64,000 nucleotides of DNA from positions 1 to 64,000 of the IMG/VR virus record IMGVR_UViG_2706795801_000001. The stretch is one strand, 5' to 3'. Of this stretch, positions 438 to 50,985 are shown one piece after another. A program made the translations under genes and the position numbers. The number at the start of each line of letters is the position of its first letter. Position 1 is the stretch's first letter. The stretch is from a virus. Taxonomy: Duplodnaviria > Caudoviricetes. The notes under the pieces were generated by a model, which worked only from the letters and a program-made list of their open reading frames with translations, ran no database searches and was not told the DNA's origin.

Positions 438-1130
438 TAGGATATTCTTGTATCCTAGTATATAAAGAGGGGGGGGTATGTTCTATATCCCCAAAATAAG
501 GGGGGAGGGTAAATTGAAGTATTAATACCCGACTAATAAATAATACTAGGAGAATTACCATAGTAATTAAAAATAATCCAACATACCAAAACTCCTGTAA
601 GCTCTATAGTTAAATTGTAATTACAAATGTATAAAAGTATTGGTACTCTATGTTATACCGCTGTCACAGCTCGATACAGGAGCTTTAAGGAGTATATCCT
701 ATTGTGATTGTCATGTAGGTACGTTATGGTGAGGATATTCTCTATATCTGGGGTATACAAACAGCCACCCCTATTTATATTCCCCCAAAACGGGGGAGGG
801 GTTTGTAGAAGGTATCGTAATAAATTACTAAGTAAAATAATAACAGTATCAAAATGTTATAAGTGATGCCATGTGATGATGTGTGACATAATATGTCGTG
901 ATAAGTTTACAGATATTTTACTATAGTGTACTGTGACATAATATGTCTAATAAGAAGGGTATAAATAGTGGTTTGGTGTTATAGTACAGAGAACTTTGAA
1001 TTTACATAACAAAAGGTATGGTAAACATAGGAGGGAAGGTGCCTAGAAGCTGCGTAGCGAGGTTTAAATTAGTTTGGTATAAAAGTTATAGTTTATAAAA
1101 AGAAAACCCCGTCAGGGGCTTCTGAGGAGG
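438..1130. repeat. Degenerate duplicated non-coding module
   Basis: Two copies of GGATATTCT, GGGGTAT, TATAT(T)CCCCAAAA..GGGGGAGGG (about 485 and 777) and AAGCT-N25-GTATAAAAGT (599 and 1047), in the same order. Confidence 0.6.
882..947. repeat. Direct repeat of palindromic operator-like site TGTGACATAATATGTC
   Basis: Two identical copies 50 bp apart, with palindromic core GACATA-A-TATGTC. Confidence 0.7.
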
Positions 1131-13593: not shown

Positions 13594-14940
13594 TTAACTG
13601 TTATCAGAAATGAACTTGGTACAATCCCCTTTATAGTTACCACCTACATCGAACACCTGTGGGACAGTAGTTAGACCAAGGGATAGAAGATACTCTTTTT
13701 CCTCTTGTGTTACCTGAATTTCCCTATACAACATACCTTTCTTCAACATGAAAGCTTTAACCTTGACGCAGTAGGGGCAATCAGGTTTAGAGTACACTAC
13801 ATAATTCTCATCTTCTGTATATTCACCAAAAAATCCAGCAAATATATCATCAGAAAAATCTACATTAGATACATCCTTACTTACAGAACTCACCATGTAG
13901 TTTGTGGCATCTGATTCCATGTTGGCATTTTGTTGGCTGTTTAAATCCATCCAGTCGTTCTCGAACCAAGGTAAAGGACATGTATTAGTCCGTCTAAACT
14001 TAGGTTGTAATTCCAGTACGTCAAAAACTTCTTGTGCATTGTATCTAACCCAGTCATTCAATATACCTTCATTCATTCCTACCAAGTTACGTCCAGAGGA
14101 GAATAAATACTTATTCCATGATAATTCTTGGTCCACAACACCATGCACAATGTTAGTCAGTTCTGTGTTATATTGGATGAAGTACTTTTCCCACTCAGGG
14201 TCTTTCATCATAACGTCTTGTAATACATAACGACCAGCTTCGTAGTGGATCATTTCGTCCATTAAAATTTTCTGAACCAGTCTAGCACCACCTATAAAAT
14301 ACTCCTGTTGGGCTAATGCAAATGTACAACTGAAACTAGACATGAAGCTGATACGCTCTAGTGCATATATTGCAACCACACCTTTGAGGACGTATGGTCT
14401 ACACTCTGCTTCTGTGGCAAGCCCAAGGGTGTATTTAGCCCCATATTCTTTAAGGTCACTAAGTGCCTTACCTACTACAGAACTACGTTCCAGTACCTTC
14501 TGATTCTCAAACACCATATCAAAAACTTCTTGTGGGTCTGAAATACATTGACGAACTATATTAGAGTAAGTGTTGCTGTGTAAATTTTCATTCTCTCCAA
14601 TACGTGCCAACAGGTGACCATATTCACTGTTAGTTACAAAAGGCGCTAATAATGTAGGTATGGAAGTTGCAATGCTATCCAAACTCCATTGGTATGCTAG
14701 GTTTAATAGCATAAGTTCTCTGGTGTTTTTATCACAGCGTAATAAGTCCATACGTGTTTCTGTTAAGTCTACATCGTTCTCGGACCAATCTAATTGTTTA
14801 AGTTTCTCCATCAACTCATACAAATATGGGTAAGGTTGGTTCACACTATCATAAAGACTTGGTTCTTCTCCGAAGAACAATGGGTACTTTCCTGTAATAT
14901 GCGAGGTAGATTTCTCGTTAAATACTGTAATCTTTGTCAA
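13594..14940 (-). CDS. nrdB: Class Ia ribonucleotide reductase beta subunit with C-terminal glutaredoxin fusion
   Basis: WSE, LDS, ENLHSNTY (radical Tyr), ERISF and DEMIH; tail YSKPDCPYC...TVPQVF. Confidence 0.93.
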   Translation of the reverse strand: MTKITVFNEKSTSHITGKYPLFFGEEPSLYDSVNQPYPYLYELMEKLKQLDWSENDVDLTETRMDLLRCDKNTRELMLLNLAYQWSLDSIATSIPTLLAPFVTNSEYGHLLARIGENENLHSNTYSNIVRQCISDPQEVFDMVFENQKVLERSSVVGKALSDLKEYGAKYTLGLATEAECRPYVLKGVVAIYALERISFMSSFSCTFALAQQEYFIGGARLVQKILMDEMIHYEAGRYVLQDVMMKDPEWEKYFIQYNTELTNIVHGVVDQELSWNKYLFSSGRNLVGMNEGILNDWVRYNAQEVFDVLELQPKFRRTNTCPLPWFENDWMDLNSQQNANMESDATNYMVSSVSKDVSNVDFSDDIFAGFFGEYTEDENYVVYSKPDCPYCVKVKAFMLKKGMLYREIQVTQEEKEYLLSLGLTTVPQVFDVGGNYKGDCTKFISDNS

Positions 14941-14996: not shown

Positions 14997-17509
14997 TTAT
15001 AAAGTGCAACCACCACCATCACAACCTACATCTACTACTTCCTCAACCTTTACTGATGTAGTAGAACCTGAATTAGTTTTACTGTTCACATAATACCTAG
15101 TTTTCATCCCCAGCATTGTCATATACATCCAGTTTTTAAGTAATTCAACACCCGTTATATCCCTTTTTGTGAAGTCTAAATACTCATCTGCTGATATAGA
15201 TTGGTCTGTTGTAGCTTGAATACAAGCGTACACTTCAATCATATCCTTAGCTGGAATATCATAGGCTAGCTCATAATATTGCTCATGTGTGTCAGCATTT
15301 GGTGCCAAGAACCTAGTCTTCTTTTTCCCGTTAGTCTTCACCACTTTAATACTACGGGCAGGCAGTATGCTATTGGTGCCATTGGTTGCAATCGATGAAC
15401 TTTCATTTGGCATATAATTGGTTGTTACACTAAATCTCACACCATACAAGAGAACATCTTTACGTAAATCTTCCCAGTTCTGAACCAGTCCTTGTTTGAC
15501 TACTTTAAACACGTTAGGGTTCATAGTATCTATAGGTAACCAACCATCTTTCCATTTAGTTTTGTACATCCAGTCACATTGCCCACGTTCTTTAGCTAAC
15601 CTGACAGAGGCTTTAATCATACTGAATGCATGTAACTCCGCTAACCTATGAATGTATTGTTTACCCTCTAACGAAGAGTATTTTAATTTCTTCTCAGCCA
15701 TATGTCCAGCTAAATCTGTAATACCCACTCCGATATTACGTCTAGCTTGAGCTGAATACTTCAGTGCTGGAAATGGATAATCCATTATATCTATCACATT
15801 GTCTATACTTAAGGCAGCGTAATATGCAACATCTTCCCATTCACTCTCTGAAACCCTACGTGCAACGATAGCTGACAAGCTACATAAACCAATCTCAGGA
15901 ATACTCCCATCTTTATTGACTGGTTGTGTTTCATTTAGTTGGTATACATTATCGAAACCTACAGTAGGGAACGCTGTTTCCTGACCATTTTATCCTAATT
16001 TTCATTAGGTGCGGATCATATCATCTCCCGTTCGGGGAGTCGGACGCTTTTTCACCCAGTGACTAAACTGTGCTACTTCCTGTTATTAAGCTTATTCGCA
16101 TAAGCTCAGGTGATCTCTGAACCTTCCTACTCCGTAGGCTTGGCTGCTGATTGCCATCATCTTTACATGTTAAGGTTTCCAGCAATTCATCCAATTATTC
16201 GACTTGTATTCCTACAAGAAGCTGCATCAGTTTACAGATTAGAACTATAAATTTTATTTAAGTGTGGTGTATGCCTATTAAGCTCATCAGTACGGTGTAA
16301 GTAAATCTGACCACTCTCTTGTCCTTGAATCAAAGCTTCCATTATAACCTTTCGGGCACTAATATATGTCTTAGGTTTAATAGATTTTTCGTACTCGTGG
16401 TACAATGTATCGAACACTGATTGATCTGCTAAATACATAGCTTCATACAATTCTGGAGCGTTCTGATAACTGACTAGCATCCACTGTTCATCATTATAAA
16501 CTTTTTGTGCAAATAACTTATTACTACCAAAAGAGTAATGTATGCCATCAACCCTTACCTTTGCCGCAGTTTTCTTACTCTTCCATGTTAATATATCCAT
16601 AATCTCAGGGTCGAGGCAGTTAACGTGCATAGTAGCTGAACCCCCTCTACTATTCTGTAAGTTAGCAGCAACTGCACTTTCAGTCATTTTATAGTAAGGA
16701 CGTTTACCTTGGTGGATAGTAGTACCACCTCGTACACCATCCCCCTTACTGCGGGTCTTAAGGTGAGAACCAATACCTGCTGAAGCACAGGTTAGCATAT
16801 ATGCTATGTGGTCACCAGCCGATAACGAATCTACAGTATCAAAAGTTGTAAACGTAGCGCAACTGGCGTATGACCTACTGGGAGTTCTAAGGTTAGTCAT
16901 AAAAGGCGTCGGTGCACAAATCTTCTTATCACTTAAATAAGTGTAATATTTAATTACATCATCTAATCTTCTGTGTTTTGGCATACCCTTCATATTTGCC
17001 ATAGCCATCCCCATGTACATGAATTGGGGTGACTCTAGTGCAATATCTTTTACTCTATTTCGGATAATATATTTGTCATTGATCTGTTTAATCTCTGGGT
17101 AAGAAGATTTCAAATCTTTAGAATGGTCTATTACCTCCTCAAGCTTATTAAATTCTTCTTCTGAGTATCCTAAAGATTCCCAGTACCCTAATGCTACCAT
17201 AGTATCATGGTGGTGTTTCAAGGTTGGAATCTTTTTGAAACCACCAAAAGCTTCTTTATAGATGATACCTGCTAACACCCTACCTGCTAACATGAAGTGC
17301 TTCTCATCAAATTCTTCGACACATGCATCAATTATAGCTTTATCAATATCTCGTGTGGTGCAATTATTACTTAGTAACTTTAATGCTTTGAATGAAATGT
17401 CACTCCAATTCACTTTTCTTGCTGCAGCCCATCTCATCTTCTTATTGAACTTTTCTGCGTCAAAAGGTACAGGTGTCCCATCACTCTTAATTACTGTGGT
17501 AATACTCAA
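14997..17509 (-). CDS. nrdA: Class Ia ribonucleotide reductase alpha subunit, two exons (17509-16234 and 15985-14997; 754 aa spliced)
   Basis: ATP cone, PTP, ASC; NLCQE restored on splicing; C-terminal CDGGGCTL. Confidence 0.93.
15986..16233 (-). mobile_element. ORF-less group I intron (248 nt) in nrdA
   Basis: 5' splice after U with P1 CTGT/GCAG, terminal G; P AATTGCTGGAAA, Q AATCAGCAG, R GTTCAGAGATCA, S ATGATATGATCC; removal gives AAT CTG T|GT CAG GAA. Confidence 0.92.
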
Positions 17510-36391: not shown

Positions 36392-37095
36392 GTGATCGTA
36401 TGAAAGGTTATGAGAAAGTCCCACAACAGAAGTTAATGAGTAAAACTCCTGTAATTATGCGGCTTGACGGAAAAGCTTTCCATACTTATACTCGTGATTG
36501 CGATAAACCGTTTGATACAGATTTACACATTATCCGTCAAGGTGTATTGGAATATCTCTGTACCAATATACAGGGTTGTATCTTAGGTTACTCTCAAAGC
36601 GATGAGATTTCATTAGTACTTAAGGATTGGGATACTTATAATACATCAGCTTGGTTTGATAATAAGATTCAGAAATTATGTTCAGTTAGTGCTTCTATGG
36701 CTACAGCGGAGTGGAATTGTCTCTCATCTCAAGTAGATAGTGAGCGTGTAACAGGTTCAAATAAGTTTAATATACATGCTTTATTTGATACCAGATGTTT
36801 TAACCTACCAATCAACGAGGTTATTAATTATCTAATCTGGCGTCAACAGGATTGGGAACGTAACAGTGTCCAGATGTTAGGTCAGAGTCTATATTCTCAT
36901 AAGGAATTACAAGGAGTCTCTTGTAAGCAGATGATTACTAACATAGAAAATGACCACGGCATTGTGTGGGGAGAGTTACCTTCTTGGCAGAAACAAGGAG
37001 AAGTGTGGTTTAATGGTGAGGTTAAAACAGATTTTATTTTCAAAGAAAATAGATTGGAAGTTGATACACTGTTAAATATTACATCGAATATTTGA
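36373..37095 (+). CDS. thg1: tRNA(His) guanylyltransferase Thg1-like 3'-5' polymerase
   Basis: LGDRMKGYE, RLDGKAFH, YSQSDEISL, FDTR and WRQQD. Confidence 0.93.
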   Translation: MSELSLGDRMKGYEKVPQQKLMSKTPVIMRLDGKAFHTYTRDCDKPFDTDLHIIRQGVLEYLCTNIQGCILGYSQSDEISLVLKDWDTYNTSAWFDNKIQKLCSVSASMATAEWNCLSSQVDSERVTGSNKFNIHALFDTRCFNLPINEVINYLIWRQQDWERNSVQMLGQSLYSHKELQGVSCKQMITNIENDHGIVWGELPSWQKQGEVWFNGEVKTDFIFKENRLEVDTLLNITSNI

Positions 37096-41378: not shown

Positions 41379-41633
41379 ATGAAACATCAACAATACATTG
41401 CATGTAAACGTGATGGTACTTTTGAATTTAGAAATGGTGAGCCTGTATTAAAACAAGAAGGTGATATTGCAATATTTAATTGTGAAGATAGTTTGGATTT
41501 ATCACAAATTAGTATGTTATCCGATTACTTTTATAACAACCCATTTAAAACGGGTACGTTTTCTAATCCAGCAGTTTCGTTAGAAGAATCTAGAATTCGG
41601 ACGAAAGATAAAATTAACAAAATAAAAGTTTGA
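41379..41633 (+). CDS. Hypothetical protein
   Basis: 84 aa ORF. Confidence 0.6.
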   Translation: MKHQQYIACKRDGTFEFRNGEPVLKQEGDIAIFNCEDSLDLSQISMLSDYFYNNPFKTGTFSNPAVSLEESRIRTKDKINKIKV

Positions 41634-41658
41634 CACACTTAGATGTTCAAGGTATTAT
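41630..41658 (+). promoter_or_regulatory. Sigma70 promoter of the RNA operon
   Basis: TTGACA-17-TATTAT. Confidence 0.8.
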
Positions 41659-41891
41659 GTACTTATAGAAACAAACGGGAGTTAAACGAAGATGTTCGTG
41701 GTTGCCGAGTCATGATTGCACTGGAGACACCTTTAACAATGTGATAATCGGGGCTAGGTTGCGGTGCGTTGGGCCAATCTATGGACGCCATCGTAAGCTG
41801 TTATTTCATTCGATAATAAGGATGGTGATAATATCTCGCAGCATGAAGCGATAGACATGCAAGCAAAGTTAACGCTATGCGCCAAATGCGT

Positions 41892-42048
41892 TTAAATATT
41901 ATTTTTATGCTAACTTTGGTTTAACGGTATAACGAAGCCGCTGAAAAAGATAAGATAACCCAAAGGCCACGGGTCGTATTCTTTAGTAGGTTAGAGGCTT
42001 AGGCGTCAAGTTCGACTCTTGGCAGGTTAGCATAAAAATAATATTTAA
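41892..42048 (+). ncRNA. tRNA-like RNA with expanded anticodon arm and long closing stem
   Basis: D arm GTTTAACGGTATAAC; T arm TCAAG-TTCGACT-CTTGG; stem AAGCC/GGCTT around a ~55 nt insert; 23-bp perfect terminal inverted repeat. Confidence 0.7.
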
Positions 42049-42124
42049 GCGTAATTAGCTCAGATGGTAGAGCGCTATCCTTCCAAGTTAGTGGTCATCG
42101 GTTCGAATCCGATATTACGCTCCA
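42049..42124 (+). tRNA. tRNA-Gly(TCC)
   Basis: Full cloverleaf GCGTAAT...CT-TCC-AA...TTCGAAT...ATTACGC-T-CCA. Confidence 0.95.
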
Positions 42125-42191: not shown

Positions 42192-42268
42192 ATCTCGTTA
42201 GCTCAGTTGGATAGAGCAACAGCCTTCTAAGCTGTGGGTCGAAAGTTCGAATCTTTCACGGGATACCA
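42192..42268 (+). tRNA. tRNA-Arg(TCT)
   Basis: Full cloverleaf ATCTCGT...CT-TCT-AA...TTCGAAT...ACGGGAT-A-CCA. Confidence 0.95.
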
Positions 42269-49671: not shown

Positions 49672-50985
49672 ATGATTAAATATTATTTGGTCGGTGGTGC
49701 AGTACGTGATATGTTTATGGGAGTATTATGTAATGACTATGATTTTGTTGTAGTCGGTGCATCACCTACTGATTTTTCTAATTGGAAGTCTGTTGGTAAA
49801 GATTTCCCTGTATTCCTTGAACCTACGCATGGTTGGGAGATCGCCCTCGCCAGAATCGAACGTAAAGTTGGTGTTGGCTACACTGGGTTTGAAACCGATT
49901 GGAATGGAGTTACCCTAGAGCAAGACTTGTCCCGCAGAGACCTCACAATCAACGCTATGGCGATTGAAGTAGATTTTGCTGCAAGTGTGTTAATTGGAGG
50001 GCCAGTCACTGTAGGGGGCGTTATAGACCCATTCAATGGGTTGTCTGATATCAAGGCTAAAGTGTTGAGACATACCAGTTCCGCTTTCATTGAAGATTCT
50101 GTAAGAGTTCTTAGGGTAGCTAGATTTCTGGCTAAGTTTGATAAGTACTGGGTAGATAGTGTTAATCACTGGAAATGCTCCCCAGAATTATATAAACTAC
50201 TTGAGTCTATAGATGTCAATGACCTAACACCAGAACGTGTATGGTTAGAGATGTCTAAAGCATTCTCTGAGGATAACCCTTCAGCCTTTTTTGATAATAT
50301 GTCCGACTGGAATAATCTATTCCCTATGTGGGAAGATATGTGGAAAACCCCACAGAAAGAAGATCATCATCCAGAGGGTTGTGTAGGTATACATACTGGT
50401 ATGGTTATGGATTATGCAGCTAAAACTTGGAGTGATCCTGAGATTGTATTTGCTGGTTTATGTCATGATTTTGGAAAACCTACTTGCTGGGATAAGTACG
50501 GTAATGCACATGGTCATGAAGTGGAAGGACTATCTTACATAAATGACTTCTGTGATAAGTGGAAAGTTCCTAACAGTTATCGTGAGTTGGCCTTGATTAC
50601 CTGTGAATATCATACCAAGGTACATGGTTGTATGTCTCGTGGCACTAATGGTTGGATGAAACCTAAATCCATCATGAAGTTGTTTGAAGCTACAGGTGCA
50701 TTAAAGAAACCTAGTAGGTTTATTAATATGCTGAAATCTTGTGAGGCTGATGCTAAGGGTAGAGGTGCTGGTGCGGAACAACTTGCAGAGTTTGAATCTA
50801 AACCTTACCTACAACGTAGTTACCTTGAAGATTGTTTATCTGAAGTACTTAACTACAACAGTAAACCTTTATCTGAGAAAATGCTTGCAGAAGGTAAAAC
50901 TGGTGTTATAATTGGTCAGACAATTAGACAGGAGAAGATTAAGTTGATCCGTGAAGTCCAGAACCAATGGAAGGAGAAAGTATGA
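49672..50985 (+). CDS. cca: Multifunctional CCA-adding tRNA nucleotidyltransferase with HD domain
   Basis: YLVGGAVRD, DYD, RRDLTINAMA, ED.VRVLR, HHPE and CHDFGK. Confidence 0.93.
   Translation: MIKYYLVGGAVRDMFMGVLCNDYDFVVVGASPTDFSNWKSVGKDFPVFLEPTHGWEIALARIERKVGVGYTGFETDWNGVTLEQDLSRRDLTINAMAIEVDFAASVLIGGPVTVGGVIDPFNGLSDIKAKVLRHTSSAFIEDSVRVLRVARFLAKFDKYWVDSVNHWKCSPELYKLLESIDVNDLTPERVWLEMSKAFSEDNPSAFFDNMSDWNNLFPMWEDMWKTPQKEDHHPEGCVGIHTGMVMDYAAKTWSDPEIVFAGLCHDFGKPTCWDKYGNAHGHEVEGLSYINDFCDKWKVPNSYRELALITCEYHTKVHGCMSRGTNGWMKPKSIMKLFEATGALKKPSRFINMLKSCEADAKGRGAGAEQLAEFESKPYLQRSYLEDCLSEVLNYNSKPLSEKMLAEGKTGVIIGQTIRQEKIKLIREVQNQWKEKV

Follow-up and report, generated by a model that had tools for sequence, protein, structure and literature searches.

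Phage-encoded stable RNAs that resemble transfer RNAs (tRNAs) have stood unexplained since species 1 and 2 of phage T4 were sequenced in the 1970s, and phage tRNAs have attracted renewed interest as targets of host defences. T4 stable RNA C (species 1, rnaC), a 139-nucleotide (nt) RNA encoded at positions 70908-71046 of NC_000866, was reportedly found in the 1970s to be specifically cut by RNase III. In ribosomal RNA (rRNA) operons and in polycistronic phage transcripts, RNase III sites are located in flanking helices, an arrangement that is established for rRNA processing. The non-decoding YrlA RNAs (RF02553) are encoded within 4 kilobases (kb) of the Ro60/rsr gene and carry the Rsr-binding motif GNCGAAN0-1G near their 5' end (PMC4201824); phages carry some of the YrlA genes (Chen et al. 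2014, PMC4201824). Here, we analysed a 157-nt element at positions 41892-42048 of a 64,000-nt stretch of DNA (the window; IMG/VR record IMGVR_UViG_2706795801_000001, positions 1 to 64,000). The record behind the window is a complete phage genome of 133.8 kb with terminal repeats. Across the element region the window shares 98-99% identity with Shewanella sp. phage 1/40, which comes from Baltic Sea ice, and both genomes are mosaics built of 98-99% identical blocks. The window phage probably corresponds to Shewanella phage 1/4 or is very closely related to it; phage 1/4 is a lytic myovirus whose tRNA genes number exactly two, for Arg-UCU and Gly (PMC9963407).

The element is a non-random, tRNA-derived RNA module that cannot decode and, as encoded, cannot be charged. 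Its acceptor stem is sealed in a long helix which, judged by comparison with other phages, belongs to an uncatalogued RNA cassette, where it is conserved as a socket, and is not peculiar to this tRNA. We favour, at a probability of about 0.42, the reading that this is a processing helix co-transcribed with tRNAs and carrying tRNA-derived, non-decoding cargo. The helix is built on a perfect inverted repeat of 23 base pairs (bp; 41892-41914/42026-42048), which had been pointed out in an initial interpretation made from the letters alone (the sequence-only reading) and which is the longest perfect inverted repeat in the window at loops of up to 400 nt. Dinucleotide shuffles (n=30) gave at most 11-16 bp, only 1.5e-6 such repeats are expected from composition, and the fold of the element had a z-score of -4.8. 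The repeat opens and closes with TTAA. Through U41915.G42025 and U41916-A42024 it extends inward to a 25-bp helix with its 5' strand at 41892-41916 and its 3' strand at 42024-42048 (plus strand). In the 5' strand, the outer 17 nt form the socket, and G-1 together with acceptor positions 1-7 makes up the inner 8 nt; the 3' strand comprises acceptor positions 66-72, C73, and a 17-nt socket strand. The helix terminates precisely at position -1 of tRNA-Gly. If G.U pairs are admitted, it can extend outward to 30 bp (41887-41916/42024-42053) and take in the first 5 nt of tRNA-Gly. A length of 37 nt (41878-41914/42026-42062) is attained at 86% complementarity, with the end of the upstream X5 motif (described below) facing the first 14 nt of tRNA-Gly; in the precursor, this pairing would compete with folding of the acceptor and D stems of tRNA-Gly. 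The helix of phage 1/40 differs by one uncompensated change, 41899 T>C, which results in a C.A mismatch.

The inner end of the helix continues into a tRNA body in which all pairs are canonical and the tertiary-contact nucleotides of canonical tRNA (RF00005) are all present. U8, G9, the D arm, and G26 occupy 41917-41934 (plus strand, as are all parts of the body); according to the sequence and the ARAGORN drawing, the D stem has 3 bp (41919-21/41931-33) plus U.U, and its loop contains A14, G18G19, and A21. The 5' strand of the anticodon stem, AAGCC (41935-41939), pairs with GGCTT (41996-42000), which together with the variable loop AGGCG, including A44, extends to 42005. It is followed by the T arm TCAAG-TTCGACT-CTTGG (42006-42022) with T54, T55, C56, and A58. 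The T stem and the acceptor strand are set apart by one extra C (42023), unless the T stem is read with 6 bp. The acceptor stem spans C1-G72 to U7-A66, with G-1:C73 in addition and A-U as pair 3:70. The 3' strand reads ...GGTTAGC-ATAAAAA with no encoded CCA, and both flanks are paired for 17 bp further. The D arm, anticodon-type stem, variable loop, and T arm are thus found in tRNA order at the positions at which the sequence-only reading had placed them, and its description of an intact elbow that lacks an anticodon loop and CCA was confirmed from the sequence. The features of canonical tRNA that are missing are the 7-nt anticodon loop with U33, the free CCA 3' end, and the single-stranded 5' leader.

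tRNA finders, which the sequence-only reading had named as a check, gave a divided result. At default settings ARAGORN did not call the element, and the Rfam tRNA covariance model did not report it even at E<=10. With introns allowed and a threshold of 95%, ARAGORN called only the element and the two true tRNAs in the 64 kb. Once the insert was replaced in silico by any 7-nt loop, the element passed the default threshold. The cloverleaf-constrained fold had a free energy of -47.3 kcal/mol versus -49.2 kcal/mol for the minimum free energy structure.

The insert located between the strands of the anticodon stem (41940-41995, plus strand) has 56 nt, close to the roughly 55 nt first estimated; the further claim that it is structured was not borne out, since no significant fold was obtained (z = -0.2). 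ARAGORN parsed the element with a 47-nt intron; an alternative parse (41956-42031) shows at a threshold of 90%, and both copies of GGTTA have their complement in TAACC (41956-60). At its 3' end (41986-41995), the insert repeats the acceptor 3' strand at 8 of 10 positions, a match that hints at an origin by partial duplication. The view that the insert is too short for a group I intron or a tmRNA (transfer-messenger RNA) held up. Rfam at E<=10 gave no intron or ribozyme match on the element, while the same scan detected a group I intron at 15993-16243. We rejected a group I intron-containing tRNA on the basis of the 56-nt insert and the lack of an Intron_gpI match at the element, and a protein-spliced intron-containing tRNA because no endonuclease or ligase family matched in the phage genome (splicing endonuclease, RtcB, Rnl1, and Rnl2; PF01974, PF01139, PF09414, and PF09511). 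A tmRNA was dismissed as well: the ARAGORN tmRNA search and Rfam were negative, pair 3:70 is A-U instead of G3.U70, and CCA is absent. A 20-codon open frame that starts from GCU in the insert is within chance and has no degradation-tag ending, which speaks against a tmRNA-like tag frame.

The helix is part of a larger cassette. The conserved 5' part of this cassette, the X5 motif, occupies 41794-41890 (plus strand) in the window and is also present in Shewanella phage ZP9 (L028:1190-1470) and in the viral contigs L023 (2090-2560, minus strand), L024 (590-810, minus strand), L029 (690-1100), L030 (815-1045, minus strand), and L031 (approximately 800-900, minus strand), the L numbers being our handles for loci. 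A stretch of 81-83 nt (41794/6-41876) is 100% identical to contigs of unrelated public runs, including wastewater and marine sediment. The X5 consensus reads ...AUCUCGCAGC[AU/C]GAAGCGAUAG[A]CA[U/G]GCAAGCAAAGYYAACGCUGUG..., and compensatory indels occur in its hairpin. X5 is followed by a long AU-rich helix around variable contents, by optional tRNAs, often the same tRNA-Gly, and by a 3' hairpin, CGCGCAUA-GAGA-UAUGCGCG, which is missing in the window. We defined a socket helix as a long helix directly 3' of ...GAAGCGATAG(A)CAKGCAAGCAAAGYYAAC... that contains variable cargo and is optionally followed by tRNA-Gly(TCC). The window displays this arrangement, with the motif at 41794-41890, the helix at 41892-42048, and tRNA-Gly from 42049. 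The socket helix measures 25-30 bp in the window, 9+2+10 bp in ZP9, 20 bp in L023, and about 11+9 bp in L030. The L024 site is empty; there, the two cassette motifs abut without a helix. The outer 9 bp (AAAUAUUAU/AUAAUAUUU) and the junction to tRNA-Gly are common to ZP9 and the window, and the last 12 nt of the 3' strand together with tRNA-Gly are homologous to the ZP9 cassette. The inner helix sequences diverge between lineages yet stay paired.

The contents of the socket differ as well. The L030 cargo has a T arm, GAUGG-UUCAAAU-CCAUC, beside the closing helix and a long anticodon-like arm; it has no CCA, and a D loop with GG is possible. The L030 and window cargoes are unrelated in sequence. 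The cargo of ZP9 and that of L023 have no T-loop and are not tRNA-like. As the helix occurs at the same cassette site around other contents, the sealed acceptor stem, which the sequence-only reading had noted correctly, is not special to this tRNA, as that reading had implied. Rfam at E<=10 on the element and the X motif gave no tRNA, YrlA, tmRNA, ribozyme, intron, GOLLD, or ROOL match. Neither of two X-motif probe patterns had an exact match in the GTDB species genomes, a blastn search of the L030 cassette against phages returned ZP9 only, and a scan with the 3' arm common to ZP9 and L030 found only L030 plus a chance coding match. The X motif may resemble part of the td intron of T4, but an interpretation as a group I intron fragment was unsupported, and the insertion of tRNA-Gly in ZP9 speaks for a cassette. 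An integron attC site was rejected since the core-site consensus misfits and lies at the wrong end of the repeat.

The RNA operon is preceded by a sigma-70-type promoter (41630-41658, plus strand; TTGACA-17-TATTAT) with 11 of 12 consensus matches. The promoter and the start motif CTTATAGAAACAAACGGG are kept ahead of the RNA operon in the relatives L008, L009, L017, and L018, and all relatives found share this promoter and transcript start. No plus-strand terminator was found between promoter and element. Because the promoter is conserved and no terminator intervenes, co-transcription of the element with tRNA-Gly and tRNA-Arg in a single precursor is likely. tRNA-Gly(TCC) (42049-42124, plus strand; ARAGORN; Rfam 68.6 bits) encodes CCA and is 94% identical to the tRNA-Gly of the ZP9 cassette. 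It directly adjoins the 3' end of the element, and its RNase P site would set that end. tRNA-Arg(TCT) (42192-42268, plus strand; ARAGORN/Rfam) also encodes CCA. Further downstream in the RNA operon there is another long AU-rich helix (42413-42430/42485-42502; 18 nt, 94% complementary, 54 nt enclosed), and long closing helices are apparently a recurrent design in this operon. Between the promoter and X5, the 5' half of a leader RNA remains (41662-41735, plus strand; 91-96% identity to L008, L016, and L017). In relatives (L008:7074-7235; L017:1235-1385) the full leader RNA has about 135 nt, is closed by CGGGAGUU/AACUCCCG, and has ACCA at its end; the closing 3' strand was not found in the window. 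The remnant in phage 1/40 has an extra 14-nt deletion (window 41706-41719) between TTGC direct repeats. The complete leader RNA of the relatives resembles another tRNA-like RNA of no recognised kind.

The element is known from two genomes only, the window and phage 1/40, with one change in 157 nt; GenBank labels the 1/40 copy 'tRNA-OTHER, Pseudo tRNA'. As the shared blocks are already 98-99% identical, this single change is uninformative on constraint. When the region and the individual tRNA halves were compared by blastn with 50,697 phage genomes, only these two were returned, an exact 22-mer search of IMG/VR found no element beyond them, and blastn on relatives fetched by neighbour proteins from IMG/VR and metagenomes added none. 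A covariance model of the element found no homologue in the relatives' loci, in four whole related records, or in L023, L024, and L028-L031; one weak match in the window at 14430-14547 (minus strand, E = 0.05) was dismissed as it lies inside a 448-amino-acid (aa) open reading frame (ORF).

In related phages reached through neighbouring genes (43-84% protein identity), the operon starts in different ways. The promoter leads straight into tRNA-Arg and tRNA-Gly in L009, L010, L020, and L021; L008 and L019 have the leader RNA of about 135 nt, then an odd tRNA-like RNA, and then tRNA-Met; in L016 and L017 the leader RNA is followed by tRNA-Leu about 190 nt further on; and in L018 the operon starts with tRNA-Met and tRNA-Arg. 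These differences indicate that the RNA operon is a shuffled set of modules. In two metatranscriptome contigs (X1/X21), an ordinary CCA-ending tRNA is located immediately ahead of the matching tRNA-Gly. The sequence-only reading had held that a simple pseudo-tRNA would be revealed by relatives with an ordinary tRNA at this place together with an unexpressed copy here. The first of the two was found: ordinary CCA-ending tRNAs occupy the position of the element in L008/L019 and L029 (tRNA-Met) and in the X1/X21 contigs. Several other unusual tRNA-like RNAs occur among the relatives. The odd RNA at L008:7230-7322 has a 7-bp acceptor helix and a T arm, CAGG-UUCAACU-CCUG, without a normal D or anticodon arm, and a second one, L008:7473-7557, ends with ...CACGGUAACCA and is found at the position of tRNA-Arg in the window. 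In the Vibrio phages eugene 12A10 (L002:1658-1740) and 1.193.O (L003:1660-1740), an unannotated tRNA-like gene is located just after tRNA-Gly; it has a CAU anticodon loop, an encoded CCA (GGCACUG...CAGUGCCACCA), and an irregular T arm.

Elsewhere in the window, profile matches identified a Thg1-like 3'-5' polymerase (36394-36810; 94.7 bits) and the head domain of a CCA-adding enzyme (49684-50070; 66.6 bits) inside a 440-aa ORF, in agreement with the sequence-only reading, which had invoked phage enzymes of both kinds. Both are encoded although the two true tRNAs carry CCA and the phage has no tRNA-His. The group I intron mentioned above (15993-16243, minus strand; Rfam 63.9 bits) is located between the minus-strand ORFs 14997-15878 and 16232-17509.

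If the helix serves processing, the element would be transcribed from the promoter at 41630 within one precursor together with tRNA-Gly and tRNA-Arg. The long helix, probably an RNA-cutting site given that several unrelated phages retain it here with different contents, would form in this precursor and provide a double-strand processing site for host RNase III. Cleavage by this enzyme is proposed because a perfect helix of 23 bp or more is a classical RNase III substrate. The RNase P cut at the 5' end of tRNA-Gly (42048/42049) would coincide with the last base pair of the helix. Together, the two cuts would detach the tRNAs from the RNA upstream and would liberate a tRNA-shaped RNA, closed by a hairpin and about 130-157 nt long, that is non-decoding and not chargeable as encoded. 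The helix would then be the selected part and the cargo interchangeable. Most simply, the tRNA-like cargo would be an ex-tRNA that was captured by recombination in a very mosaic operon, and its stable fold may since have been recruited for some use. This reading is favoured by a helix that is far beyond chance and recurs at the same site in independent lineages, by the end of the helix exactly at position -1 of tRNA-Gly, by the conserved promoter with no intervening terminator, by a cargo that varies by lineage within an operon neighbourhood that is a patchwork of shuffled, truncated modules, by the ordinary tRNAs that relatives have at this place, and by searches of the phage genome for enzymes able to remove the insert, which returned none.

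Several points weigh against it. RNase III cleavage is predicted solely from the length and perfection of the helix. None of the indexed public runs contains the element; in the four runs that matched, coverage is confined to the X5 motif and to the tRNA-Gly/Arg region of relatives. A plain hairpin would suffice for cutting, yet the filled sites (ZP9, L023, L030, and the window) keep about 50-110 nt of cargo. The sequence-unrelated cargoes of the window and L030 both have a canonical T arm by the closing helix and both lack CCA, and the window body retains all tertiary-contact nucleotides while it has lost precisely two translation features; the retained T arms and the intact body fit selection on tRNA shape. 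Finally, inverted repeats around variable contents could be a feature at the level of DNA.

Selection on shape is the core of a possible, if doubtful, alternative in which the tRNA-shaped cargo is itself the selected product, a stable, uncharged, non-decoding mimic with an intact elbow on a long stem. It might bind or titrate a tRNA-recognising factor, such as a host tRNA-directed defence nuclease, RNase P, a modification enzyme, or a ribosomal site, or it might be a substrate for the CCA-adding and Thg1-like enzymes of the phage once the helix is cut. That the tertiary-contact nucleotides are intact, that the body passes ARAGORN at default after replacement of the insert, and that both anticodon loop and CCA are gone, though both true tRNAs encode CCA, would all be accounted for. 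So would the L030 socket with its second, sequence-unrelated cargo, and both enzymes are encoded by the phage; among tRNA-like stable RNAs, T4 rnaC and YrlA (PMC4201824) provide precedents. However, there are just two copies, 98-99% identical, whose lone difference is an uncompensated mismatch, the related phages searched with the covariance model of the element yield no homologue, the socket of ZP9 and L023 is filled with non-tRNA cargo, a stable fold of the insert is lacking, and no partner protein was identified. In line with the sequence-only reading, a decoy role, or maturation by RNase III and the CCA and Thg1 enzymes, is possible as far as the sequence goes. An RNase III cut would produce a 3' overhang facing a recessed 5' end, and a Thg1-like 3'-5' polymerase requires a primer-template of just this form. 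We consider it unlikely that these ideas combine into an RNA cassette shared by phages of Shewanella and related hosts, in which a helix socket would display interchangeable small RNAs, at least two of them sealed, CCA-less tRNA bodies selected for their elbow, that act as decoys for tRNA-recognising host defences or processing enzymes, or as substrates of phage enzymes.

That the element is plain debris appears a little less probable again. A tRNA gene would have been disabled by an insertion or a partial internal duplication in the anticodon loop, helix and cargo would be functionless, and the perfect repeat would stem from a recent DNA-level event, for example template switching that lengthened the acceptor palindrome. 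The GenBank annotation of the 1/40 copy agrees with such an origin, as do the truncated neighbours (a leader RNA that lacks the 3' half and has a further deletion in 1/40, and a 5' cassette motif that lacks the 3' hairpin), the near-repeat of the acceptor 3' strand at the 3' end of the insert, and the ordinary tRNAs at this place in relatives; the perfection of the repeat suggests a recent origin. However, a helix with different sequences is found at the same position in at least three other lineages, and its maintenance there argues against a one-off accident. Debris would also require several separate changes, namely the insert, the loss of CCA, and a 17-bp helix extension, with the body staying perfect, and phage genomes rarely keep 157 nt of promoter-proximal junk. 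It is very improbable that the element is the precursor of a real tRNA from which the insert is excised like an intron before the helix is trimmed and CCA is added by the phage enzyme. ARAGORN does model an intron at its 95% threshold, and a CCA-adding enzyme is present; however, 56 nt is far below the size of a group I intron, whose catalytic core has about 200 nt or more and which to our knowledge is the only intron type in bacterial and phage tRNAs. Intron and ribozyme matches in Rfam are absent here at E<=10, the phage genome encodes no splicing endonuclease or RNA ligase, and we know of no tRNA splicing endonuclease in bacteria. Moreover, no excision point yields a unique canonical anticodon loop, as the anticodon shifts with the cut position. 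Similarly slight is the chance that the 23-bp repeats mark the termini of a small mobile element, or that they form a cruciform or a site for protein binding. Helix plus cargo is polymorphic, L024 being empty and L023, L030, and ZP9 filled, and the repeat starts and finishes with TTAA, but the element is a single copy in the complete 133.8-kb genome, the arm sequences vary among lineages, unlike transposon ends, and the repeats are located within a promoter-driven RNA operon, where their inner end forms a tRNA acceptor stem.

The bare observation was already known as the GenBank pseudo-tRNA of phage 1/40. What had not been described is the setting in a conserved, uncatalogued cassette with a helix socket and interchangeable cargo; two of these cargoes are sealed tRNA-like RNAs. 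The element joins a flawless tRNA body with the loss of both translation-specific features, and the recurrence of the helix around different cargo makes the function of the helix and that of the cargo separable hypotheses. The system is tractable: the close relative Shewanella phage 1/4 grows on the cultivated host S. glacialimarina (PMC9963407), and an RNA-seq data set of an infection, sampled at 70 min post infection, exists (PRJNA1416385; bioRxiv 10.64898/2026.03.05.709803). Structured RNAs of tRNA size are under-represented in standard libraries. Even if the cargo is inert, the element documents an uncatalogued conserved phage RNA motif and the modular rebuilding of phage RNA operons.

Among known systems, tRNA pseudogenes in phage clusters share with the element the label given to the 1/40 copy and the inability to decode. 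In contrast to such pseudogenes, the body of the element is undamaged, and its acceptor is embedded in a helix that is conserved elsewhere around other contents. The processing helices of rRNA precursors appear analogous in that a long, near-perfect helix surrounds an enclosed RNA within a polycistronic stable-RNA precursor, beside an RNase P-processed tRNA. They differ from the helix of the element, which encloses only about 107 nt, tRNA-shaped and variable among related cassettes, and for which cleavage is predicted. YrlA likewise is non-decoding, has a long terminal stem and a tRNA-like domain with D- and T-arm tertiary nucleotides, and as encoded lacks a free CCA end. However, YrlA ends join at the 'anticodon' side and its acceptor is a closed stem-loop, whereas the ends of the element join at the acceptor side. 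No match to Ro60/TROVE (PF05731) was found in the complete 133.8-kb phage genome, although control genomes respond, and the GNCGAAN0-1G motif is absent from the 5' strand of the element. As Rfam gave no YrlA match at E<=10 either, we rejected membership in the YrlA/Y RNAs, and the sequence-only suggestion of a Y-RNA-like species was not upheld.

The closest analogue is T4 stable RNA C. There is no sequence homology between the two, the covariance model of the element scoring rnaC at 11 bits (E = 2.2), and their architecture differs. In rnaC, an extra hairpin of about 60 nt replaces the D arm and an anticodon-like hairpin remains, whereas the element has a canonical D arm and an expanded anticodon loop; the ends are free in T4 and sealed in a 25-bp terminal duplex in the element. 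Both RNAs are without encoded CCA, and both have been described with a long extra hairpin. Both are located in a phage tRNA cluster beside tRNA-Arg(UCU), and in each an acceptor-like end helix adjoins a canonical T arm, which in T4 reads CCGGG-UUCGAAU-CCCGG. Of the traits that mark an informal, non-curated class of species-1-like phage RNAs, stable accumulation among them, the element displays the location in a tRNA cluster, the T arm stacked on a terminal helix, and the lack of decoding capacity.

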